A stretch of 64,000 nucleotides of DNA from an uncultured Methanosarcinales archaeon (GTDB lineage Archaea; Nanobdellota; Nanobdellia; Woesearchaeales; CAYPCY01). Position numbers and translations under genes: made by a program. The notes beneath the pieces are model-generated. The model was not told where the DNA came from. It worked only from the letters and a program-made list of their open reading frames with translations, and made no database searches. Shown here in pieces: positions 30,704 through 47,906 of this stretch; position 1 is the stretch's first letter; the number at the start of each line of letters is the position of its first letter. The stretch covers positions 10,608 through 74,607 of the forward strand of contig CAYPCY010000002.1 in NCBI GenBank assembly GCA_964409385.1, read 5' to 3'.

Positions 30704-30793
30704 GGGCCGGTAGCTCAGCCTGGTAGAGCACTTGGCTTTTAACCAAAACAGAAGGCAACCAAGGTGTCGCGAGTTCGAATCTCGTCCGGCCCA
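30704..30793 (+). tRNA. tRNA-Lys(TTT) with canonical 37/38 intron (30742-30757)
   Basis: GGGCCGG/CCGGCCC acceptor, CTTGG/CCAAG anticodon stem, BHB central helix CTTT/AAGG. Confidence 0.92.
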
Positions 30794-30803
30794 TACAAAA
30801 AAA

Positions 30804-31043
30804 ATGGCAAAAGAAGAAAAATTGGAGCATGTTTTAGTACCCGAGCATAAAAAGCTCTCTAAAGAAGAAAAATCTAACCTTCTAGAAAAATATTCAATTG
30901 ATGAAACTAAATTACCAGTAATTAAAATTAAAGATCCCGCAATAGAACATTTAGAACTAGTTCCGAATGACGTTATCAAGATTGAAAGAACAAGCTTGAC
31001 TGCTGGAAGAATAGACTTTTTTAGGAGGGTTATTGATGAGTAA
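30804..31043 (+). CDS. rpoH: DNA-directed RNA polymerase subunit H (Rpo5)
   Basis: HVLVPEH..LS, LPVIK..DPA, DVIKIER.S.TAG, RRV. Confidence 0.97.
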   Translation: MAKEEKLEHVLVPEHKKLSKEEKSNLLEKYSIDETKLPVIKIKDPAIEHLELVPNDVIKIERTSLTAGRIDFFRRVIDE

Positions 31044-32511
31044 TATTCTTGTAGAAAATTATTTTAGAGAAAAATCATTGATATCTTCAAATATTGAATC
31101 ATTCAATAAGTTTATTGACAAGTACCTTCAAGAAATAATTAATGAAAATAAAGAAGTAGAACCAACAATAATTCCAGGAAACATTCAAGATTTTAAGATA
31201 AGACTTGACAAAATTTGGGTTTCAAAACCAGAAGTTACAGAAGCGGATGGTTCAAAAAGAGAAATTACACCTACTGAAGCAAGATTAAGAAAAATTTCTT
31301 ACGCAGCACCAATTTATTTAGAGGTTTCTTCACATGTTAATGGAGTTCAAAGAGAAGCTTTCAAAAGCCAAATTGGTAATTTACCAATAATGCTAAAATC
31401 TAAATATTGTCATTTACATGGACTTTCTAAAGAAGAACTAATTAGTAAGGGAGAAGATCCTGACGATCCAGGAGGATACTTCATTATTAATGGTACAGAA
31501 AGAGTTGTCGTTATAATTGAAGATCTTGCGAGCAATACTTTAATGGTTAGCGAAGATAAAGGCGTTTCTCCTTTTGTAGGAAAATTATTTTCAGAAAGAG
31601 GATCTTATAAAATTCCTCATACTTTCGAACAATTAAGAAAGGACGGCATTTTTTATCTAACATTAACAAGATTACAGAGAGTTCCCATAATTTTATTAAT
31701 TAAAGCTTTAGGAATTGTCAAGGATGAAGAGATTATGAAATTAATAAAATCACCTTATGATTCTGAAATGCTAATTAACTTGTATGAACAATCAACCATT
31801 AAGACTGAAGAGGAAGCTATTGATAAACTAGCTAAGAAGATTGGAATAACACAAGTTAGAGAGATTAGACTTGAAAGAACTAGAGATATTTTAGACAAAT
31901 TCTTACTTCCACATATTGGAACTACTAGCGAATTTAGAATGGCTAAGGCAAAGAATTTATGTAAATATTTAAGCAAGTTCATTCTTGTTTCAAAAGGAGA
32001 CTTACCAACTGATGATAAGGATCATTATAAAAATAAAAGGTTAAAAATGGCAGGAGATCTTCTTGCTGATTTGTTCAGGGTTAATATTAAAGTTTTAATT
32101 GGAGACATGCTTTATAATTTCCAAAGAATAGTAAAAAGAGGAAAATTTCCTTCAGTAAAAGTAGTTATTAGGAATAAATTATTAACTCAAAGAATTTATA
32201 GTATGTTAGCAACTGGTTCATGGGTTGGAGGTCGTAAAGGAGTTTCCCAAAGATTATCCAGACATAATTTCTTAGATACAATGTCGCACTTACAAAGGGT
32301 TGTTAGTCCTCTTATGAGCTCTCAAGAAAATTTTGAGGCTAGAGCTTTACACCCTACTCATTTAGGAAGACTTTGTCCTACTGAAACTACTGAAGGAACA
32401 AATATTGGTTTAAGAAAGAATCTTTCATTATTATCTAAAGTTTCTTCAGAGGTTGATGTTGAAGAATTAATAACTTCATTAAAAAATGTGGGTTTGGAGG
32501 AGGAAAAATGA
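31036..32511 (+). CDS. rpoB2: RNA polymerase subunit B'' (Rpo2N)
   Basis: EARLR..SY.AP, DPGGYFIINGTERV, DKDHY.NKRL, HLGRLCP.ET. Confidence 0.97.
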   Translation: MSNILVENYFREKSLISSNIESFNKFIDKYLQEIINENKEVEPTIIPGNIQDFKIRLDKIWVSKPEVTEADGSKREITPTEARLRKISYAAPIYLEVSSHVNGVQREAFKSQIGNLPIMLKSKYCHLHGLSKEELISKGEDPDDPGGYFIINGTERVVVIIEDLASNTLMVSEDKGVSPFVGKLFSERGSYKIPHTFEQLRKDGIFYLTLTRLQRVPIILLIKALGIVKDEEIMKLIKSPYDSEMLINLYEQSTIKTEEEAIDKLAKKIGITQVREIRLERTRDILDKFLLPHIGTTSEFRMAKAKNLCKYLSKFILVSKGDLPTDDKDHYKNKRLKMAGDLLADLFRVNIKVLIGDMLYNFQRIVKRGKFPSVKVVIRNKLLTQRIYSMLATGSWVGGRKGVSQRLSRHNFLDTMSHLQRVVSPLMSSQENFEARALHPTHLGRLCPTETTEGTNIGLRKNLSLLSKVSSEVDVEELITSLKNVGLEEEK

Positions 32512-34310
32512 CTGATGTGTTTTTGGACGGAAAATTTATTGGCACTGTAAAAAATGAAGAAGTATTTGTTGAAAAAATAATTTCTGAAAGAAGATCTGGA
32601 AAATTCCCTGAAAGTATTAGTGCAAGATTTGACGATTCTGTGAAATCTGTACTTCTAGAATCTTGCAGAGGAAGAACTCTAAGGCCTTTACTAGTTGTTA
32701 AGAATGGAAAAACATTACTTAATGAAAAGCATATTTCTAAATTAAAATCAAGGGATTTAAAATGGACTGATCTAATAAAACAAGGAGTTATTGAATATTT
32801 AGATGCTAATGAGGAAGAATCAGCATTCATAGCTTTTTTCGAAGATGAATTAACTAAAGAAAATACTCATCTGGAAGTTTCTGCATTAGGAATGGTTGGA
32901 TTATGCACTTCTCTAGTTCCTTTTGGAAACTACAGTCCAGGTACTAGACTTATTCAAGGTTCTAAAAATCAAAAACAAGCATTAGGATTCTACGCTGCAA
33001 ATTATTTACAAAGAATGGACATGGACATTAGTTTATTACATACTCCTCAAATTCCACTAGCCCAATCATTAATGCACGAAGTTTCTGATTATAACAAGCA
33101 TCCATCAGGACAAAATATTGTTTTGGCAGTTATGAGTTATGAAGGATATAACATGGAAGACGCTATTGTAATAAATAAGGGGTCTATAGAGAGGGGTCTT
33201 GGAAGAAGTACTTACTTCAGACCAGTTTCTGCAGAAGAACTTAGATATTCGGGTGGTCTTATTGATGAAGTTTGTATTCCTGACAAGGATGTAAAAGGTT
33301 ACTTATCAGAAGTTGACTATAGATATTTAGAGGATGATGGAATAATCTATCCAGAAGCAAAAGTGTCTGAAGGAAATGTAATAATTGGAAAAACTAGTCC
33401 TCCAAGATTCTTAAGTTCTCTAGATGAATATAATCTTGCAACAAGCAGCAGAAGAGAATCTTCACTAGCATTAAAACATGGAGAGAAAGGAACTATTGAT
33501 TTTGTTTTATTAACAGAGAATGAAGAAGGAAATAAACTAGTTCAAGTAAGAGTTAGAGAACAGAGAGTCCCAGAAATAGGAGATAAATTTACATCAAGAC
33601 ATGGTCAAAAAGGAGTTGTTGGATTAGTTCTTCCTGAGGAAGATGTTCCATTCACTGCTTCAGGAGTAACTCCTGATATAATTTTCAGTCCTCACGGTAT
33701 GCCTAGTAGGATGACAGTTTCTCACTTTATAGAATTAATAGCTGGAAAAGTAGCAGCATTATCAGGAAGATATGTTGACGGTACTATGTTTTATTCAGAA
33801 AAAGAAAATGATTTAAGAAAAGAACTTGAAAGTTTTGGTTTTACTGAAAATGGAACAGAAACACTATATAATGGAATAACTGGAGAAAGGTATAAAGCAA
33901 AAATATTCATTGGAAACATGTATTATATGAAATTAAAACATATGGTTGCTAATAAAGTTCATTCAAGAGCAAGGGGACCTATACAATTACTAACAAGACA
34001 ACCTACTGAAGGAAGGGCTAAAGAAGGAGGTCTTAGACTTGGAGAGATGGAAAAGGACACTTTCGTAGCTCATGGAGCTTCATTACTATTGAAAGAAAGG
34101 TTTGATTCTGATAAAACAATAGTTCCAGTTTGTGAAAGTTGTGGAGCAATGGCAGTTTTTGATGAGTATAAAAGTAGAACCTTCTGTCCATTATGTGGGG
34201 AGGATTCTAAAGTTGGAAATACTGAAATGAGCTTTGCTTTCAAGCTAATGCTTGATGAGTTCAAAAGTTTAGGAATATTCCCTAAATTAAATTTGAAGAG
34301 TAAATACTAA
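32508..34310 (+). CDS. rpoB1: RNA polymerase subunit B' (Rpo2C)
   Basis: GYNMEDA, GDKFTSRHGQKG, LKHMV..K.H.R, GGLRLGEME, Zn ribbon. Confidence 0.97.
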   Translation: MTDVFLDGKFIGTVKNEEVFVEKIISERRSGKFPESISARFDDSVKSVLLESCRGRTLRPLLVVKNGKTLLNEKHISKLKSRDLKWTDLIKQGVIEYLDANEEESAFIAFFEDELTKENTHLEVSALGMVGLCTSLVPFGNYSPGTRLIQGSKNQKQALGFYAANYLQRMDMDISLLHTPQIPLAQSLMHEVSDYNKHPSGQNIVLAVMSYEGYNMEDAIVINKGSIERGLGRSTYFRPVSAEELRYSGGLIDEVCIPDKDVKGYLSEVDYRYLEDDGIIYPEAKVSEGNVIIGKTSPPRFLSSLDEYNLATSSRRESSLALKHGEKGTIDFVLLTENEEGNKLVQVRVREQRVPEIGDKFTSRHGQKGVVGLVLPEEDVPFTASGVTPDIIFSPHGMPSRMTVSHFIELIAGKVAALSGRYVDGTMFYSEKENDLRKELESFGFTENGTETLYNGITGERYKAKIFIGNMYYMKLKHMVANKVHSRARGPIQLLTRQPTEGRAKEGGLRLGEMEKDTFVAHGASLLLKERFDSDKTIVPVCESCGAMAVFDEYKSRTFCPLCGEDSKVGNTEMSFAFKLMLDEFKSLGIFPKLNLKSKY

Positions 34311-34311
34311 A

Positions 34312-36870
34312 ATGGAAAACGTACCAAACGAGATTAATAATATAACTTTTAGCCTGTTCGGTCCTAAAACGATTAAGAACATGGCTGCGGCCAAGGTAGT
34401 AACACCAGAACTTTATGATAGGGAAGGATATCCTGTTGATGGCGGTTTAATGGATATTAGATTAGGAGTTATCGATCCTGGAATTAGATGTAAAACTTGC
34501 GGTTCTAAATTAAAAGAATGCCTTGGACATTTTGGTTATATTGAATTAGCAAGACCAGTAGTTCATGTTAAATTTGTTCCAACCATATTAAGTATTTTAA
34601 GAAGTACTTGTAACGAGTGTTCTAAACTTCTTGTTTCTGATGAAGAATTAGAAGATGCAAAGAAATTATTAAAAAATACTATTCCAAAGTTAGTATTAAA
34701 ATCTTTAAAACTTGGCAAGAGTTGTCCTCATTGTAAGTCTGAACAAGGAAAAATAATGCTTGAAAAACCAACCACTTTTTTAGAAGTTGATAAGAGAATT
34801 TCACCTATTGAGGTTAGGTCAAGACTTGAGAAGGTTCCTGATGATGCATTGCCTGTTTTTGGTATTAATCCAGAAGCTGCAAGGCCTGAATGGCCAATCT
34901 TGACTGTATTAGCAATTCCACCAGTTACTATGAGACCTTCCATAACTTTAGAGTCTGGAGAAAGAAGTGAGGATGATTTAACACATAAACTAGCAGATAT
35001 TGTAAGGATTAATCAAAGACTTTTCGAGAATATTAACGCTGGAGCTCCAGAAATCATCATTGAAGATTTATGGGATTTATTACAGTATCACATCACAACA
35101 TTTTTTGATAATAATCTTTCTCAATTACCACCTGCTCGTCACAGAAGTGGAGAGCCACTAAAAACATTAACAGAAAGAATAACTAGTAAAGAAGGAAGAA
35201 TAAGACATAATTTAGCAGGTAAAAGAACTAATTTTTCTGCAAGAACAGTTATTAGTCCAGATCCTAAAATTGAAATGGATGAAGTTGGAGTTCCTATAGT
35301 TATGGCTTTAAAACTTACAGTTCCTGAAAGGATTACTGAATGGAATTTGAATTATCTGAAAAAGTTTGTTGAGAACGGTCCTAAAGTATATCCAGGCGCT
35401 AATTATATTGTTAGGCCTGATGGTAAAAAGAAAAAAATAACTGATGATACTAAAGAACAATTATTAGAAGAGATAGAACCAGGATTCCAGGTTGAAAGGC
35501 ATTTAATAGATGGTGATGTAGCATTATTTAACAGACAACCTTCACTACATAGAATGTCTATGATGTGTCACAAGGTTAAGGTACTTCCAGGCCTAACATT
35601 AAGACTAAATCCTGCTGTTTGTGCCCCTTACGCTGCAGACTTTGACGGGGATGAAATGAATTTGCACATTCCTCAAACAGAAGAAGCAAGGGCTGAAGCA
35701 GAAATATTACTAGAAGTAGAAACTCAAGTTATTAGTCCAAGGTACGGATTAAGTATAATTGGTTGTAATCAAGACTCAGTTTCAGGAAATTATGTTCTTA
35801 CTAAATATTTAGATTTTCCTAGGAGTGAAGCCATAGACTTACTTGCTTCAATAGGAGTTACTGATTTTTCAAAACTTCCAAAGAAAGAAATTGTTTCTGG
35901 AAAAGAAGTTTTTTCAGTATTACTTCCTAAAGATTTCAATTTTGAAGGTCACGCAAAATCTTACAAGCCAGGATCTAAAAATTCTGACGATTTTGTTAAG
36001 ATAGAAAAAGGAGTATTAAAAACAGGAGTATTAGACAGTAAAAATATTGGTGGTGGTTCTGGACTTTTACTGAGAAATTTACACAAACAATACGGTCAAG
36101 AAAGAGCACTAAAAATGCTAGGATTATTTTTCAGGCTTGGAATTCAAACTTTATTGAAGTACGGGTTTTCATCTTCATTATCCGATACTGACTTAACTTC
36201 TAAAGCTTCCAAAGAGGTTGAAAATATAATTTTAGAATCTGAAAAGGAAGTTAATAAATTAATTAAGAAGTATAATCAAAAAACTTTAGTTTCTCTTCCA
36301 GGAAGAGGATTAAGAGAAACTTTAGAACTAAAAATTCTTGAAGTTCTTAATAGAGCAAGAAACGATGCTGGAAAAGTAGTTTTCGATACTGCTGATGTAA
36401 TGAGTCATACTTACATAATGGTTGATTCGGGAGCTAGAGGTAATGAAATCCAACTAGCTCAAATGGCTGCTTGTGTAGGACAACAAGCGTTCAGAGGGTC
36501 TAGAATTAACCAAGGATTTGGAGGTAGAACATTATCTTGTTTCAAAAAGAATGATTTAAGTCCTAAAGCACATGGTTTTGTTAGGGGGGGTTATAAGTCA
36601 GGATTAAAACCTCACGAGTTCTTTTTTATGAATATGACTGGTAGGGATTCATTAATGGATACTGCATTAAGAACTCCAAAATCAGGTTATCTCTACAGAA
36701 GATTAGCTAATGCCATGCAGGATTTAAAAGTAGAATATGATTTTACTGTTAGAGATGCAGCTAATAAGATTGTTCAATTCACGTATGGAGAGGACGGTAT
36801 TGATGTTTCAAAAAGTGAAGGAGGCAGTATTAACATTAAAAAAATAGTTGATACTGTTATTAAGGGTTGA
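34312..36870 (+). CDS. rpoA1: RNA polymerase subunit A' (Rpo1N)
   Basis: GHFGYIELA.PV, NRQPSLH, ADFDGDEMN, SGYL.RRL. Confidence 0.97.
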   Translation: MENVPNEINNITFSLFGPKTIKNMAAAKVVTPELYDREGYPVDGGLMDIRLGVIDPGIRCKTCGSKLKECLGHFGYIELARPVVHVKFVPTILSILRSTCNECSKLLVSDEELEDAKKLLKNTIPKLVLKSLKLGKSCPHCKSEQGKIMLEKPTTFLEVDKRISPIEVRSRLEKVPDDALPVFGINPEAARPEWPILTVLAIPPVTMRPSITLESGERSEDDLTHKLADIVRINQRLFENINAGAPEIIIEDLWDLLQYHITTFFDNNLSQLPPARHRSGEPLKTLTERITSKEGRIRHNLAGKRTNFSARTVISPDPKIEMDEVGVPIVMALKLTVPERITEWNLNYLKKFVENGPKVYPGANYIVRPDGKKKKITDDTKEQLLEEIEPGFQVERHLIDGDVALFNRQPSLHRMSMMCHKVKVLPGLTLRLNPAVCAPYAADFDGDEMNLHIPQTEEARAEAEILLEVETQVISPRYGLSIIGCNQDSVSGNYVLTKYLDFPRSEAIDLLASIGVTDFSKLPKKEIVSGKEVFSVLLPKDFNFEGHAKSYKPGSKNSDDFVKIEKGVLKTGVLDSKNIGGGSGLLLRNLHKQYGQERALKMLGLFFRLGIQTLLKYGFSSSLSDTDLTSKASKEVENIILESEKEVNKLIKKYNQKTLVSLPGRGLRETLELKILEVLNRARNDAGKVVFDTADVMSHTYIMVDSGARGNEIQLAQMAACVGQQAFRGSRINQGFGGRTLSCFKKNDLSPKAHGFVRGGYKSGLKPHEFFFMNMTGRDSLMDTALRTPKSGYLYRRLANAMQDLKVEYDFTVRDAANKIVQFTYGEDGIDVSKSEGGSINIKKIVDTVIKG

Positions 36871-36875
36871 TATTA

Positions 36876-37994
36876 ATGAAAGCATTCGATGAGTATAAAG
36901 GAAAATTACCTGTTTCTTTAATTGAAGAGGTTAAAGAAGAATTACCTGAAGGTATTAATGAAGCAAAAGTTAAGAAAATATTGGAAGAAGTCTATTCAGA
37001 ATACATTAAGAGTTTAGTGAATCCTGGTGAATCTGTAGGAATAATTTCTGCAGAATCAATTGGAGAACCTAGTACTCAAATGACATTAAACACTAAATTA
37101 TTAGCAGGGGTTTCCGAAATGAATGTTACTCTTGGAATTCCCAGAATTATTGAAATTTTAGACGGAAGAAAAATAATAAAAACTCCTATGATGGAAATAG
37201 GACTTAATAAGAAATTTTTGGATAAGGAAGTTAAAAAATTCGCAATGAAAATAAAAGATACTTCTTTGAAAGAGTTTGTTGTTAAGGTTTCTACAGATAT
37301 TACTAATAGTTCACTAAAGCTTGATTTGAATAAAGATCTTCTTTCAGAGTATGATTTAACTCCTGAAGAAATTAAAGTTTTAGTGGCTAAGAAGCATGAT
37401 GTTAAATTAACAGGCAATTCTTTAACAATTAAAGTTAAGGATGCTTCAATAGGTGATTTACATGAGGTTAAAGGTATAGTTTTAGATTTACATGCTATTG
37501 GAATAAAAGGAGTAACACAAGTATTACCTGTTAAAAAAGACACAAAACATGTTATAATGACTTCTGGTTCAAACCTTAAAGAAGTATTAAAACTTGATTT
37601 TGTCGATCCAAAAACCACTAAAAGTAATGATCTTTATGAAACAGAAAAATTCTTTGGTATAGAAGCAGTTAGACAATTAATAATAGACGAAGTTCTAAAG
37701 GTTTTCGAAAATCAAGGATTAGATATTAATGCAAGACACATATTGTTAATCGCTGATATGATGTGTTATTCTGGAAAGATTCAAGGAATAACAAGATATG
37801 GGATCGTTTCTGAAAAGAAATCAGTTCTTGCCAGGGCTTCTTTCGAAACACCTGTAAAGTACTTAATAGCAGCTGCATTAGATGGTGAAGTTGATGAGTT
37901 GGCTAGTGTTGTTGAGAATGTTATGATTAACCAACCAATTCCTGTAGGAACTGGTCTTCCAGGACTTGTAACAAAGTTTAAAAATAAAAAGTAA
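36876..37994 (+). CDS. rpoA2: RNA polymerase subunit A'' (Rpo1C)
   Basis: PGESVG..SA.SIGEP.TQMTL, GIEA.R, RHI.L.AD.M, LARASFE, GTG. Confidence 0.97.
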   Translation: MKAFDEYKGKLPVSLIEEVKEELPEGINEAKVKKILEEVYSEYIKSLVNPGESVGIISAESIGEPSTQMTLNTKLLAGVSEMNVTLGIPRIIEILDGRKIIKTPMMEIGLNKKFLDKEVKKFAMKIKDTSLKEFVVKVSTDITNSSLKLDLNKDLLSEYDLTPEEIKVLVAKKHDVKLTGNSLTIKVKDASIGDLHEVKGIVLDLHAIGIKGVTQVLPVKKDTKHVIMTSGSNLKEVLKLDFVDPKTTKSNDLYETEKFFGIEAVRQLIIDEVLKVFENQGLDINARHILLIADMMCYSGKIQGITRYGIVSEKKSVLARASFETPVKYLIAAALDGEVDELASVVENVMINQPIPVGTGLPGLVTKFKNKK

Positions 37995-38007: not shown

Positions 38008-38265
38008 ATGAAGGCAGATATTAGAAAGATTGTTGAATCAAAGAAGACAATTTTAGGGAAGAATAGAACTTTAAAAGCATTACATTCTAAAACTTTAAAG
38101 ACAGTATTTCTAGCTAAAAATAGTCCTAAAACTTTAAAGTCTGATTTTGAAAGATATTCTAGAATTTCAGGCTTTAAACTAGTAAATACTGATTTTTCTA
38201 ATGAAGAGTTAGGAGTTATTTGTAGAAAACCATTTTTTGTTTCAGTAATTGGAGTTTTGAAATAA
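38008..38265 (+). CDS. rpl30e: 50S ribosomal protein L30e
   Basis: ILG...TLK, ELGVICRKPF.VSVI; conserved position after rpoA2. Confidence 0.92.
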   Translation: MKADIRKIVESKKTILGKNRTLKALHSKTLKTVFLAKNSPKTLKSDFERYSRISGFKLVNTDFSNEELGVICRKPFFVSVIGVLK

Positions 38266-38676
38266 ATGGGAGTTTCTTTTGATGTTAAAACTTTACAATT
38301 AATTTCTTTATTTGAAAAAAAAACTAGGACTAGAGTAAAAGATTGTATTTTAACTGATGATAAAACAATTTTTGTTCTTGAAAAAGGAAATTTGTTTAAA
38401 ATTATTAAAAACAAAGGAAGTATTCAAAAACTAGAAGATTTATTTAAGTTTAAGATAAAATTAGTAGAATTTAATTCGGATATTACTATTTTCGTGAAAA
38501 ATTTTGTTCATCCTATAAGACCAGAAAGTGTAATTGAAGAAAATAATATCATAAGTATTAAAGGTTCTGACACTAAATCTAAAGGTTTACTAATTGGTAG
38601 AGATTCAAGAAATCTAATTTTACTGAAGAATGTCTTAAAAAAGTTCTTCATTATAGAGGATATTAAGGTCGTATAA
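38266..38676 (+). CDS. nusA: Archaeal NusA-like transcription factor
   Basis: FE..T...VKDCI, KG.LIGR...N KH motif; synteny. Confidence 0.9.
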   Translation: MGVSFDVKTLQLISLFEKKTRTRVKDCILTDDKTIFVLEKGNLFKIIKNKGSIQKLEDLFKFKIKLVEFNSDITIFVKNFVHPIRPESVIEENNIISIKGSDTKSKGLLIGRDSRNLILLKNVLKKFFIIEDIKVV

Positions 38677-38716
38677 TGCAAATTTTTATAAATGGTTTTA
38701 ATTTTCGAGGATTTAT

Positions 38717-39154
38717 ATGGCAAAGAAAGGAAATGGATTGAATGCAGGTAAGAAATTATTGGCTAGAAGATCTAAATTTAGATGGGCTAACAAAGCGTTT
38801 AAGAAAAAAACTTTAAATTTGAAGAGAAAATCAGATCCTTTAGCAGGAAGTTCACAAGCTTCAGGTATTGTTCTTGAAAAAATCCAAGTAGAAGCTAAAC
38901 AACCAAATTCTGCAATGAGAAAATGCGTTCGTGTACAACTTGTTAAGAATGGAAAGCAAATATCTGCATTCCTTCCGGGTGATGGCGCAACTAAAATGGT
39001 TGATCAACATGATGAGGTTGTTATTGAATGTATTGGAGGAAGCAGGGGGAGGTCTAAAGGAGATCTTCCTGGAGTTAGGTGGCAAGTAATAAAAGTTAAT
39101 GATCAATCCTTGAAAGCATTGCTTTCAGGCAAGTTAGAAAAGGCAAGAAAATAA
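38717..39154 (+). CDS. rps12: 30S ribosomal protein S12 (uS12)
   Basis: [24 protein letters not shown]. Confidence 0.98.
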
Positions 39155-39747
39155 TGATAAAAGCATTCAATAAGTGGGGAACTGAAGAAATTAAGGTAGA
39201 AGACCCTGGACTAGTAAAGTACATTTCTTTAAAAGCTAAGATTGTTCCTAGAACTGGAGCGAGATATGCTAAGAATAGATTTCATAAATCAAACACTTTT
39301 ATTATTGAAAGATTAATGAATAAAGTAATGGTTCCAGGTCACAAATCTAAAAAACATTTCAAAACATCATATCATGCTACTGGAAAATCAGGAAATGCTT
39401 ATGAATTAATTAAAAAAACTTTATTATATATTGAAGAAAAAACTAAAGAAAATCCTATTAAAGTTTTTGTAAAAGCGTTAGAAAATGCTGCTCCTAGGGA
39501 AGAAATAATAACTATTGAATATGGTGGTGCTCGTTATCCTAAAGCAGTAGAATGTGCGCCTCAAAGAAGAATTGATGTTGCATTAAGATTAATGGTTCAA
39601 GGATCTTATCAGAAAGCTTTCGATAGTAAAAAACCTTCATTCCAGGCTTTAGCTGAGGAGATTCTTAATGCTTATAATATGAAGCCTGCAAGCACTGCTA
39701 TTTCTAAGAAGTTAGAGCTTGAAAGACAAGCAGATTCTAGCAGATAA
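39154..39747 (+). CDS. rps7: 30S ribosomal protein S7 (uS7)
   Basis: NPI.V.V.A.EN..PREE, P.RR.D.AL, ELER.A.SSR. Confidence 0.98.
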   Translation: MIKAFNKWGTEEIKVEDPGLVKYISLKAKIVPRTGARYAKNRFHKSNTFIIERLMNKVMVPGHKSKKHFKTSYHATGKSGNAYELIKKTLLYIEEKTKENPIKVFVKALENAAPREEIITIEYGGARYPKAVECAPQRRIDVALRLMVQGSYQKAFDSKKPSFQALAEEILNAYNMKPASTAISKKLELERQADSSR

Positions 39748-44215: not shown

Positions 44216-44902
44216 ATGGATAAAAATAATCTATGTATTAATGAAGAATTAGTATATATAATAGGTGTTATTATGGGGGATGGACACATATCTAATTCAT
44301 CTAAATCAAAAACTGATCTGTCTAAAGATTATAGAATTTCTATTGAAAGTGTTGATTTTGGATTTTTGAAAGTGGTAGAGAAATTAATAAAAAAATATGT
44401 TGAAACTAAAAGTATTGTAAGATTGTTAAAAAAAAGAGAAGGGAAACAACAATCATATTATTTTCAAATAAGAAATAAGAGATTTTATTTGTGGCTTGTT
44501 GAATTTGTGAAAATTCCGCCAGGGGCTAAATCTAGAAAGTTGAGATTGCCAGAGTATATATTAAAAGGGACTTATGAACTGAAGACGTCTTTTCTAGCAG
44601 GATTATTCGATTCGGATGGGGGTTTTAGAGGCAAGACCATCGGATTTACTATGAGTTCTGAATTGTTCCAAGATGATATTTTCAATCTTTTAAGAGAATT
44701 AAATATTTCTTCTTCGAAAGATCAGTGGGTTAATAAAATTACATTAAAAACATATTTTGGTTTAAGAATTCACAAATCTGGGGCAATAAAATTTTTAAAG
44801 GAAGTAATTCTTCGAAATCCTGAGAAAATCGAAAGATTATTGGTGCGGGAATGCCGGAGTGGCCAAACGGGACAGATAAATTGTTTAAAGAAAACGATTT
44901 AG
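44216..44902 (+). CDS. Free-standing two-motif LAGLIDADG homing endonuclease
   Basis: YIIGVIMGDG and FLAGLFDSDG motifs, G.KS....LP; no intein splicing motifs. Confidence 0.88.
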   Translation: MDKNNLCINEELVYIIGVIMGDGHISNSSKSKTDLSKDYRISIESVDFGFLKVVEKLIKKYVETKSIVRLLKKREGKQQSYYFQIRNKRFYLWLVEFVKIPPGAKSRKLRLPEYILKGTYELKTSFLAGLFDSDGGFRGKTIGFTMSSELFQDDIFNLLRELNISSSKDQWVNKITLKTYFGLRIHKSGAIKFLKEVILRNPEKIERLLVRECRSGQTGQINCLKKTI

Positions 44903-45322: not shown

Positions 45323-47497
45323 ATGAAAATAAAAAAAGCAATTAAGAAAATAGTTGCATTAGGAGCTGGAGCTACTATGGTTGGGGCAACCTTACTAGGT
45401 GCTATGGCGACTGATTTAAGCAACTATCCTGCACCATTCGTTCAAGATGGTTCAATTAACAATGCTATGATTGTTGTTGGTGCTAACGCAGCTACTTCTG
45501 ACGTTATAGGTGCAATAGATATATCCGCTTCATTACAAGCAGCAGCTTACAGTGAAGAAGAAGTATCTACAGGAACTTCAGAAACTACTGTTACTGGTGG
45601 AGAAGTTGAAGACAAGTTAGTTTTCGGTCTAGCTCCTTGGAGTGGGAACAAATCCTACGACGATGGAGATATAGCTGTATTATCTGACAGTGATGTAAGA
45701 TACAACAGTGTAGATAGAGACTATAAAGAAACTATCTTTATTGAAAACGGCGCTTTGATCGCCCAATCTGGTGAAGATCACGAAGAATATGGAATTGCAC
45801 CATTTGTGGAAGTAGAAGATTCAAAAGCACTCTACTACAGATACACTTTTGATACTGCATTACCATTTAATTCAAGCGCTGATGCTGACTTAGACATTTC
45901 ATTCTTAGGAATGGACTTGCAAATCACTGGTTCTGCTGCAAGTAATAAAGTTACATTATCTGCTGCTGAAACAAAATGGTTCGCTCATGGTGAAGAAATA
46001 ACTGCAACTGTTAGTGGTGTTGATTATACTATTAAGTTAGTTGGTGTATACTCTACTACTGAAGCAATGGTTTCCGTTAATGGAGAGCAAAAATTAATGA
46101 CTGATGGAGATACAGACTCTTGGGGTTATGACAATTTTGAGCTTGAATTAACTGATGCTGTAAATGATGACAGTACTGCAAACGACATTGCCAAAATCAA
46201 ATATGGTACTAAAGCTTCAGAAACTGCTGAAAATAGTAAGACTGCAGAAGTCTTAGGTCAAGGAAATAAAGATGACGAAGCTGAATGGGTATGGGACATT
46301 AGTACTGATGCTGACGGTAACATCTCCTATGTTGGAGTTCAATACAGTCAGGACAGAAACAGAATAGCTTCGGAATTATCTGAAGATTACCAACTACCTG
46401 CTCTAGCCGAAGGAGACTGTATATCTTTCCCTAACAGTTTTGCAGAAGTTTGTTTCACACAAACTAGAAACAATGCTGAAGGAAGAGAAGAATTCACAGT
46501 AACCAACGATAAGGTTAATGAGTGGAAAGATGATAATGGTATGACTATCTTTGATGATGAGGACCAAGTACTTACTTTCAGTTCAAGTGCTGGAAAGGAC
46601 ATCTTTAAAGTAGGTAGTGACAAATACAGTAAAGTTATGGTAGGCAAGGACATGGGTGACATTGGTCTTACAGACTCTGCTGGAACCAAGACAAATACAT
46701 CATTCAGTAGAACAGCATTGTCTATTGAAGTTGATGATGAATCAAAAGCAGTTATTTTGAGTAACTCAACTGGTGGTTCAACAGGAACTTTAGCATATGT
46801 TGAATTTTCAGCTATAGGGAACACCACAGCATACACAGGTACTTGGAGTGCTGCTCTGAATTGGACTCTTAACTGGACTGAAGATGATGACAGTGTTGCT
46901 GGAGAACTAGCTTTAGGCGGTACTAATGTTGGAACTAGAGACTACAGTTTCATGACTGACTATGGAGTTCAGATTACTGACCCTAAAAGTACTCTACAAA
47001 ACGGTTATGGTTATGTGAAGTTATCCTATCCTGATGAAAAGATGACTTGGGACTTAACTGTTGGTGGTGCTGCAAGTACAGGTACTACTGGTGGAGCAAC
47101 GTCTCAATCCATTAACTGGGTTGGATTAGGACTTGGTGTTCTAGACTCTGATGCTAGCTCTGACGCTGGTAACTTAATTGTTGTCGGTGGTCCATGTGCT
47201 AACAGCGTAGCAGCTGAACTAATGGGAAGTACTTCAGACAATTGTGCTGACGGATTCTCAGAAGGACAAGCTAAGATTAAGCTATACAACACTGGAGATA
47301 ACATGGCTCTATTAGTTGCTGGATATTCAGCTACTGACACAAGAGCTGCTTCAAGAGCTGTAGCTAACTATGCTAGCGAAGACTTTAGCGGTGACGAATT
47401 AGCAGTAACTGTATTAAGTGCAACAGATTATTCACTTGGTGCTCCTGCTGCTGAGGAAGAAGAAGCTGAAGCTGACGCAACAGAAACTGGAGAGTAA
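45323..47497 (+). CDS. S-layer protein (Methanococcales-type N/C-terminal domains)
   Basis: IKKIVALG.GA.M.GA, IVVGA.A...DVIGA, NLIVVGGPCAN, LLVAG....DTRAA; GGAGGTG SD; acidic; distinct codon usage. Confidence 0.9.
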   Translation: MKIKKAIKKIVALGAGATMVGATLLGAMATDLSNYPAPFVQDGSINNAMIVVGANAATSDVIGAIDISASLQAAAYSEEEVSTGTSETTVTGGEVEDKLVFGLAPWSGNKSYDDGDIAVLSDSDVRYNSVDRDYKETIFIENGALIAQSGEDHEEYGIAPFVEVEDSKALYYRYTFDTALPFNSSADADLDISFLGMDLQITGSAASNKVTLSAAETKWFAHGEEITATVSGVDYTIKLVGVYSTTEAMVSVNGEQKLMTDGDTDSWGYDNFELELTDAVNDDSTANDIAKIKYGTKASETAENSKTAEVLGQGNKDDEAEWVWDISTDADGNISYVGVQYSQDRNRIASELSEDYQLPALAEGDCISFPNSFAEVCFTQTRNNAEGREEFTVTNDKVNEWKDDNGMTIFDDEDQVLTFSSSAGKDIFKVGSDKYSKVMVGKDMGDIGLTDSAGTKTNTSFSRTALSIEVDDESKAVILSNSTGGSTGTLAYVEFSAIGNTTAYTGTWSAALNWTLNWTEDDDSVAGELALGGTNVGTRDYSFMTDYGVQITDPKSTLQNGYGYVKLSYPDEKMTWDLTVGGAASTGTTGGATSQSINWVGLGLGVLDSDASSDAGNLIVVGGPCANSVAAELMGSTSDNCADGFSEGQAKIKLYNTGDNMALLVAGYSATDTRAASRAVANYASEDFSGDELAVTVLSATDYSLGAPAAEEEEAEADATETGE

Positions 47498-47597: not shown

Positions 47598-47906
47598 ATG
47601 AAAAGAAAACTTCTTGAGACTAGTATATTCAGGAAAAAATTCAAAAAATTGACTAAGGAAACTAAAAAAAGATTTGAATCACAATTCAGAATACTTCAAG
47701 ATTTGTCTGTAAGTCCTTATCAGATTGGAAAACCTTTAGGATTTAGAGAGTTTAGAGAATTGAAACAAAAAGGGGTTAGAGTATATTTTTATGTTTACAA
47801 ATCTAAGATTATTATTTTATTATTGGATGTTTCAAACAAGAAAACTCAAGAAGATATAATAATTAAACTTAAAGAATATTTGAGGAGTGTAAAATTTTTT
47901 AAATAG
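47598..47906 (+). CDS. RelE/ParE-like toxin
   Basis: T..F.K.FKKL, P...GKPL, FRELK...RVYF; basic, 102 aa. Confidence 0.7.
   Translation: MKRKLLETSIFRKKFKKLTKETKKRFESQFRILQDLSVSPYQIGKPLGFREFRELKQKGVRVYFYVYKSKIIILLLDVSNKKTQEDIIIKLKEYLRSVKFFK

Follow-up and report, generated by a model that had tools for sequence, protein, structure and literature searches.

The catalytic center of multisubunit RNA polymerases (RNAPs) contains two residues that, to our knowledge, all mechanistic models of these enzymes take as fixed. One is the Asn in front of the ADFDGD motif of the largest subunit (N479 of yeast Rpb1, N458 of bacterial beta'), which, as far as we know, is usually called universally conserved; the other is the trigger-loop His (Rpb1 H1085), which touches the incoming nucleoside triphosphate (NTP) at its beta-phosphate. 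The debate over whether this His acts as a general acid or only positions the substrate has drawn mostly on laboratory mutants. In this work, we describe an archaeal RNAP in which both residues are replaced. Its largest subunit, split into Rpo1N (A') and Rpo1C (A''), is encoded in a 64,000-nucleotide stretch of contig CAYPCY010000002.1 (assembly GCA_964409385.1, positions 10,608 to 74,607 of the forward strand), referred to below as the window.

In the RNAP papers cited here, H1085 is called invariant or ultra-conserved. In Rpb1 numbering, N479 and Q1078 make a direct contact to the 3'-OH of the NTP and reach its 2'-OH by way of a water, a water hub connects the 3'-OH with the beta-phosphate, and F1084 packs on Pro765 and Tyr769 of the hybrid-binding domain and on Leu842 of the bridge helix; for H1085L and H1085Q, which are 2-10-fold slower, waters were proposed as proton donors (PMC7619134). 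Yeast cells with Leu at position 1085 are viable and healthy, while A, N, D, or F is lethal and K, R, W, or Y has severe effects (Qiu et al. 2016, PMC5127505). Yeast F1084R is lethal and is specifically suppressed by Q1078S, Q1078 being the residue that binds the ribose together with N479 (Duan et al. 2025, PMC12391331). In Pyrococcus furiosus, A' substitution N456A lowers kpol from 13 to 3.8 per s with KM unchanged and causes a "moderate" loss of discrimination against 2'-deoxy-ATP (ca. 2.4-fold, computed from the printed kpol/KM values); A'' substitution H87A makes the enzyme ca. 12-fold slower, inactive in promoter-directed transcription, and ca. 7-fold less selective, and Q80A lowers selectivity 8.5-fold (Fouqueau et al. 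2013, PMC3737540). Wild-type Pyrococcus RNAP discriminates ca. 680-fold. Substitutions N458S in E. coli beta', and also N479S, change selectivity against 2'-deoxy NTPs less than five-fold, R425 being the main determinant (Makinen et al. 2021, PMC7862312).

The window enzyme is an ordinary archaeal RNAP by membership and a natural variant at the catalytic center. With canonical archaeal enzymes, whose solved structures include those of Thermococcus kodakarensis (4QIW) and Saccharolobus (2PMZ), it shares Rpb1 domains 1-5 divided between A' and A'', the DFDGD metal site, the Arg of FNRQPSLH, the trigger-loop Gln, Leu, and Asn, and the operon order; it differs from them in having Ala for the Asn of NADFDGD and Lys-Leu-Leu (K-L-L) for Phe-His-Phe (F-H-F) in the trigger loop. 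The Pyrococcus N456A enzyme carries exactly the same Asn-to-Ala change in an archaeal background, and H87 is the same His, but both are laboratory single mutants, N456A being ca. 3.4-fold slower, whereas the changes described here are natural, combined, replace His with Leu, not Ala, and sit in an enzyme on which the cell depends for life. Yeast H1085L, on which the "positional catalyst" view is based, has the same His-to-Leu replacement; it is, however, a laboratory allele with Asn479 and both Phe residues in place, while the window enzyme has Lys and Leu flanking the site and lacks the Asn. E. coli N458S affects the same ribose-holding position, and the Arg equivalent to R425 is retained in the window. 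Other natural archaeal polymerases with GADFDGD or AADFDGD have Gly or Ala at the same site; three of these genomes have Arg at the His position, and K-L-L is confined to the window lineage and a second lineage represented by genomes G013 and G263.

Results

Both NTP-contacting positions are replaced in a single-copy polymerase

The two subunit genes and the sites in question are as follows.

34312..36870, forward strand: Rpo1N (A'), the catalytic N-terminal part of the large subunit, 852 amino acids, with Pfam Rpb1 domains 1-5
36876..37994, forward strand: Rpo1C (A''), 372 amino acids from the ATG, with Pfam Rpb1 domain 5 (PF04998, E 1e-48)
35533..35535, forward strand: Arg408 in FNRQPSLH, equivalent to Rpb1 R446 and beta' R425 by offset in the yeast match; kept
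35629..35661, forward strand: metal-A loop YAADFDGDEMN, with Ala441 at the position of the Asn (Rpb1 N479), from the reading frame and yeast numbering
37062..37145, forward strand: trigger loop of Rpo1C, with the equivalents of Q1078, L1081, and N1082 kept, from the match to yeast Rpb1
37095..37103, forward strand: aaa tta tta, encoding K-L-L where relatives have F-H-F (Rpb1 F1084, H1085, F1086)

An earlier note, made by a model from the sequence alone, had pointed to AADFDGD in place of NADFDGD at this locus. Positions 35629-35661 read tac gct gca gac ttt gac ggg gat gaa atg aat, and the Ala441 codon, gct at 35632-35634, differs from the Asn codon AAT in its first two bases, just as the note had it. 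The Pro of the note's "PYAADFDGDEMN" lies at 35626-35628, immediately ahead of the Tyr codon at which the coordinates open, a trivial offset. Window Rpo1N was numbered by a gap-free match to yeast Rpb1 chains, in which Ala441 falls on N479 (the beta' N458 equivalent), D443, D445, and D447 on D481, D483, and D485, and R408 on R446. The assignment of the residue and the retention of all three Mg-binding Asp residues of DFDGD, both claimed earlier, were thus borne out.

The note had also referred to an accompanying change in the trigger loop, and this, too, is present. The loop of Rpo1C reads NTKLLAG instead of the usual NTFHFAG. Q1078, L1081, and N1082 are represented by Q71, L74, and N75, and K77, L78, and L79 stand at F1084, H1085, and F1086; the codon of Leu78 (tta, 37098-37100) has another base at each of its three positions than both codons for His. 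The two-metal site, with its three Asp residues, is intact, the R446-equivalent Arg is kept, and so are Gln, Leu, and Asn of the trigger loop; two-metal chemistry is predicted to be retained.

Sequencing error, which would have undone these observations, was checked against contigs of four sequencing runs not flagged as a possible source. Two runs span the Asn-site codon and four span the trigger-loop codons, with 0 differences. Relatives carry the same residues: AADFDGD is found in P0005, a partial protein from a separate 2-kb contig that is ca. 82% identical to window Rpo1N, and in P0125, a second full-length member of the 90% cluster of window Rpo1N, a cluster with sequences from several archives. 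Sequencing or assembly error was therefore rejected. In Rpo1C, five lineage members from different archives (P0126-P0130, 83-90% mutual identity) have an identical loop with identical flanks; since the variant loop is the same in diverged members, it is maintained and not decaying. P0126 begins at the same Met as window Rpo1C.

Two side observations were made on Rpo1N homologues. P0005 lacks 39 residues (KLKECLGHFGY...CNECS) relative to residues 66-104 of window Rpo1N, in the N-terminal zinc-binding region, which could be a genuine deletion or could stem from faulty assembly or gene calling on the 2-kb contig. P0123, an 861-amino-acid homologue, reads NADFDRDEMN, with Arg for Gly inside DFDGD, and could reflect a sequence error or a defunct copy.

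The genome, that of a ca. 0.8-Mb marine Woesearchaeal (DPANN-type) archaeon, comprises 797,906 bases in 15 contigs and was scored 100% complete. A search of the whole of it returned one Rpo1N match, and a second polymerase copy was rejected. Rpo1N contains PF04997, PF00623, PF04983, PF05000, and PF04998, in this order (Pfam, E 1e-82 to 2e-22), and the frames of the polymerase genes are intact, with no stops. Rpo1N departs from near-invariant columns at 15 of 416 positions, inside the range of its relatives (1-18), and general gene decay was rejected on this ground; Rpo1C departs at nine of 111, the highest number in the set (the next highest is seven). The polymerase is thus single-copy and constrained and, judging from its sequence and conserved operon, is predicted to be functional and catalytically active.

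Loss of the Asn is recurrent in archaea

The Asn is present in all 29 same-order relatives and in 118 of the 120 closest homologues listed. To find the replacement elsewhere in archaea, as the earlier note had proposed, one genome per species (185,579 species) was scanned for ADFDGDEMN preceded by a codon starting with C, G, or T. Eighty-one other species genomes lacking the Asn were found, with Gly in 64, Ala in 15, Tyr in one, and His in one. Most are labeled Woese-, Pace-, Micr-, Nano-, or Parvarchaeota (DPANN), and a few Methanomicrobia, Thermococci, Methanomethylophilaceae, or Marsarchaeota. Genome L080 is labeled Nitrososphaerales, and its motif and loop are identical in type to those of the group labeled Pacearchaeota; its contig may be mis-binned. 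An even sample of 401 genomes from the window's class held 17 with a codon starting with C, G, or T (17 of 395 if six genomes marked as unpublished, which gave no match, are set aside), and the window's order holds four of the 17 (G000, G100, G013, and G263). We conclude that loss of the Asn is recurrent: among close relatives it is unique to the window lineage, and in archaea it is not unique.

When every metagenome contig was searched for codons that begin with A and encode neither Asn nor Lys, only 10 matches came back, all Thr or Ser, about half of them without the usual Pro-Tyr context. The common replacements, Gly and Ala, are each two base changes away from Asn, while the one-step neighbors Asp, Ser, and Thr were missing or infrequent. 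Such a bias speaks for selection of a small residue and against random decay, although the comparison is made across two collections and is only indicative.

Literature searches for GADFDGD and AADFDGD found no paper; a published supplementary alignment of 542 archaeal loops might contain K-L-L or Arg haplotypes. In one paper that covers both the trigger loop and DPANN archaea, the passages concerned make no reference to variants of the active site.

The trigger-loop His is lost mainly on Asn-less backgrounds

Loss of the His is far less common than loss of the Asn. The trigger loop could be read in 74 of the 81 Asn-less genomes, with His in 70, Arg in three (L038, L077, and L109), and Leu in one (L083, which is G263). 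The loop of G013, taken from another locus, also has Leu at the His position. Within the window's order, both sites were read in 29 relatives, in genome G205, and in 100 further genomes taken by coordinates. In the latter, Asn was present in all 98 readable motifs and His in all 96 readable loops, three loops being split by inteins and one being cut by the end of the stretch. Over the order, the His was lost in three of four Asn-less genomes and in none of 124 Asn-bearing genomes with both sites read (p ~1e-5, Fisher's formula, hand arithmetic); G100 lacks the Asn and keeps the His. This p value overstates the contrast, for G013 and G263 are related to each other and it was in the window that the pattern was first noticed.

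Among the 120 nearest Rpo1C clusters, eight lack the His, and all eight read KLLAG; five belong to the window lineage, and the other three have the GEQGTQ...KLLAG form seen in G013 and resemble the second lineage, whose genomes are Asn-less. Among 150 Rpo1C representatives at 50% identity, His was present in all 96 loops matched by the search expression, the remaining 54 being mostly intein-split, cut off, or of a variant form that retains His. Proteins P0304 and P0335, from a different archaeal lineage, have Thr at the His position (...MTMRSYTLAS...) and Ser for the hinge Gly. The flanking positions can change on their own: Phe to Leu alone at position 1086 was found in 14 of the 100 further same-order genomes, and Phe to Lys alone at position 1084 in G002. 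Long intein-like inserts inside the trigger loop, right after GEPGTQM, were seen in L200, L218, and L226 of the same order and in many of P0250-P0395.

In three places of the tree, the two sites switch together. The window lineage has Ala with K-L-L, and its nearest relatives have Asn with F-H-F. In family f14, G013 and G263 combine GADFDGD with NTKLLAG, while their sister G205 has NADFDGD with NTFHLAG. Genus g221, which belongs to another order, has members of two types, AADFDGD with VFRMAG (G077 and G338) and NADFDGD with VFHMAG (G129, G142, and G244); L038 and L130 are sisters with 99% support. A fourth His loss, in L109 (GADFDGD with VFRSAG), lies among relatives with Gly and His whose loops are otherwise identical; there, the Asn was lost first. 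On a FastTree of 114 Rpo1N rows, the state of the His position changed at least four times and that of the Asn position at least five times; the latter count is an undercount, because Asn-bearing rows from outside the order were barely sampled.

Two more conserved columns are altered in both K-L-L lineages and unaltered in their relatives.

34993..34995, forward strand: Rpo1N Ala228 (HKL-A-DIV), a conserved Gly that is Ala here and Ser in the other K-L-L lineage
33927..33929, forward strand: Rpo2C Met474 (Rpb2 1093), a conserved Leu that is Met or Gln in the K-L-L lineages

Across orders, the column of Rpo1N 228 also differs between the Asn-bearing and the Asn-less sets, in a comparison confounded by phylogeny.

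Linked markers separate the two K-L-L lineages

Trees and approximately unbiased (AU) tests were quick ones, run under LG+G4, and the tested group of window, G013, and G263 was named after the first tree had been seen. In the Rpo1N tree that includes G205, this genome, canonical at both sites, joined G013 and G263 with 98% support, and the window with P0005 was placed elsewhere. A concatenate of the linked markers RpoH, Rpo2N, Rpo2C, L30e, NusA, S12, and S7 (21 genomes, 1733 columns), with Rpo1N and Rpo1C excluded, grouped G205 with G013 and G263 at 100%, placed the window in a separate clade of nine genomes, also at 100%, and rejected a clade of window, G013, and G263 (AU p 0.0047, log-likelihood difference 91). 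Window Rpo1C is 49-50% identical to the G013 and G263 proteins and 46-63% identical to those of other relatives, and the derived states that both K-L-L lineages have in common at conserved Rpo1C columns are only the two loop residues. Since the markers separate the lineages, Rpo1C identity is no closer between them, and only loop residues are in common, we favor two independent origins of the combination of a small residue with K-L-L. A recent transfer of Rpo1C, which we also weighed, seems unlikely.

The polymerase operon and its surroundings

The genes of the window are arranged in the order RpoH-Rpo2-Rpo1N-Rpo1C-L30e-NusA-S12-S7; those around the Rpo1 genes were assigned with Pfam.

30732..31043, forward strand: RpoH (Rpb5 C-terminal domain), the first gene of the polymerase cluster
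31033..34310, forward strand: Rpo2N and Rpo2C, the split second-largest subunit
38008..39747, forward strand: L30e, NusA-like KH protein, S12, and S7, the linked species-tree markers

A few kb downstream of the operon, at 44216-44902 (+), lies a free-standing open reading frame (ORF) of 228 amino acids resembling LAGLIDADG homing endonucleases. It is followed at 45323-47497 (+) by an S-layer-like protein of 724 amino acids and, after that, by a weak ParE-toxin-like ORF at 47598-47906 (+; E 9e-4, below the Pfam cut-off). A zinc ribbon of the TFS/TFIIS type, in an open frame of 109 amino acids, is encoded elsewhere in the genome (G000:C2:165240-165353, minus strand). As this ribbon is kept, loss of the cleavage factor plays no part in the changes described here.

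Discussion

We consider it probable that the window encodes a working, sole RNAP whose co-evolved NTP-holding site has been rewired at two linked points. In such an enzyme, Leu may retain the steric, "positional catalyst" role of the His, as in the viable yeast H1085L; ordered waters may supply the proton and the ribose contacts that went with Asn and His; and the new Lys may bring a positive charge close to the phosphates. Weakening of the ribose clamp by the change of Asn to Ala or Gly would render a basic or non-His loop tip tolerable. The distribution of the two changes suggests epistasis of this kind, in which loss of the Asn is tolerated alone, recurs often, and is apparently a permissive background for replacement of the His. 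By analogy with the published mutants, nucleotide addition would be expected to be several-fold slower, with a modest drop in discrimination against 2'-deoxy NTPs.

The co-evolved remodeling proposed in the earlier note stood up in part. The two sites switch together in three places of the tree, and in the window's class, loss of the His was not seen on an Asn background; the co-occurrence that the note had proposed to look for is seen inside the order. A number of points nevertheless weigh against this interpretation. The coupling runs in one direction, as the His is kept in 70 of the 74 readable Asn-less genomes, and so in most Asn-less lineages. P0335, a fused protein, has Thr at the His position and yet retains NADFDGD. 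In a paired, phylogeny-aware test, four independent pairs differed in the His, of which ca. three were concordant, none was discordant, and ca. one showed no change (median p 0.25; with only four pairs, p < 0.05 is unreachable), and two of the four His-loss lineages came from a set picked for Asn loss. Rpo1N alone gave no rejection of one K-L-L clade at 0.05, either without G205 (AU p 0.31) or with it (AU p 0.082, log-likelihood difference 54). Once the loop columns had been removed, Rpo1C (360 columns) slightly preferred one clade (4.4 log-likelihood units better, p 0.63), so that Rpo1C transfer or, given the long window branch, long-branch attraction is possible. Yeast rules are not simply transferable, as H1085L is synthetically lethal with most gain-of-function mutants (PMC5127505/PMC12391331). 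Finally, all that is said here on rate and selectivity and on what Lys, Leu, and water do is inferred. We regard the Asn-His link as a repeated pattern with a plausible mechanism that is statistically not closed.

Four other explanations have to be weighed against that of a linked change. Both replacements could be near-neutral or slightly harmful and have been fixed separately in small populations of symbionts with reduced genomes, their co-occurrence then reflecting a relaxed constraint on the polymerase. The common and patchy loss of the Asn in DPANN-type lineages (17/401; 81 species), mostly without loss of the His, is what such drift would produce; the Asn-bearing, His-less P0335, the non-significant paired test, and the position of window Rpo1C as the most divergent of its set also speak for it. 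It is hard to reconcile, however, with the absence of general decay in Rpo1N, with a variant loop that is invariant over five diverged lineage members, with identical K-L-L in two lineages separated by markers, with the 0/124 His losses in Asn-bearing genomes of the order, and with replacements by Gly and Ala instead of one-step neighbors, and we judge it unlikely. A single origin of K-L-L, with the loop reaching the second lineage by ancestry or by transfer of Rpo1C, draws on the same Rpo1C preference and the same lack of rejection by Rpo1N alone that were listed above. Still, the linked markers reject it, G205 groups with G013 and G263 at 98-100% while being canonical at both sites, window Rpo1C is no closer to theirs than to others and has in common with them only the two loop residues, and the residue that replaced the Asn differs (Ala versus Gly); we accord it a low probability, below that of drift.

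The changes could also have been selected together to loosen sugar selection, allowing 2'-deoxy or unusual nucleotides to be used by a nucleotide-scavenging symbiont, as the earlier note had suggested. Lower discrimination by Pyrococcus H87A and, to a lesser degree, N456A (PMC3737540) fits this idea, while the small shifts caused by N458S and N479S (PMC7862312) do not. The major determinants of selectivity, namely the R425/R446-equivalent Arg and the trigger-loop Gln, are kept, incorporation of deoxynucleoside monophosphates into RNA is of no evident use, and most Asn-less lineages retain the His. We find adaptive loosening about as improbable as a single origin, and the link to nucleotide scavenging is speculation. 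There is next to no chance that we are dealing with an artifact, whether from faulty sequencing or assembly, a pseudogene, or a spare paralogue, and no evidence for one was found: Ala requires two base differences and Leu three, contigs of other runs and independent database members agree at both sites, and the gene has an unbroken frame and occurs once in a genome scored as complete.

Returning to the rewired NTP-holding site, a bolder version of it would be a second, convergent design, in which the change of Asn to Gly or Ala makes the His replaceable by K-L-L or Arg and in which a neighboring Lys and water take over the contacts to phosphate and ribose. We put this forward tentatively, as a possibility that is less likely than not to hold.

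New here are ca. 80 Asn-less archaeal polymerases, the nested loss of the His, and the occurrence of K-L-L in two lineages, a pattern not found in print in the literature searches made. For annotators and modelers, it follows that NADFDGD is not strictly invariant in archaea. The metal-loop Asn together with the trigger-loop His and Phe1084 forms a testable epistatic pair that lies outside the reach of mutational scans confined to the trigger loop, and ca. 80 natural Asn-less polymerases are available for comparative enzymology. Natural cellular lineages get by without either residue, which supports the view of the His as a positional catalyst. If the proposed design is true, it would show directly, from a natural case, that the His need not act as a general acid, and would reveal an epistatically gated alternative active site, with a changed acceptance of nucleotides or nucleotide-like inhibitors by the enzyme.

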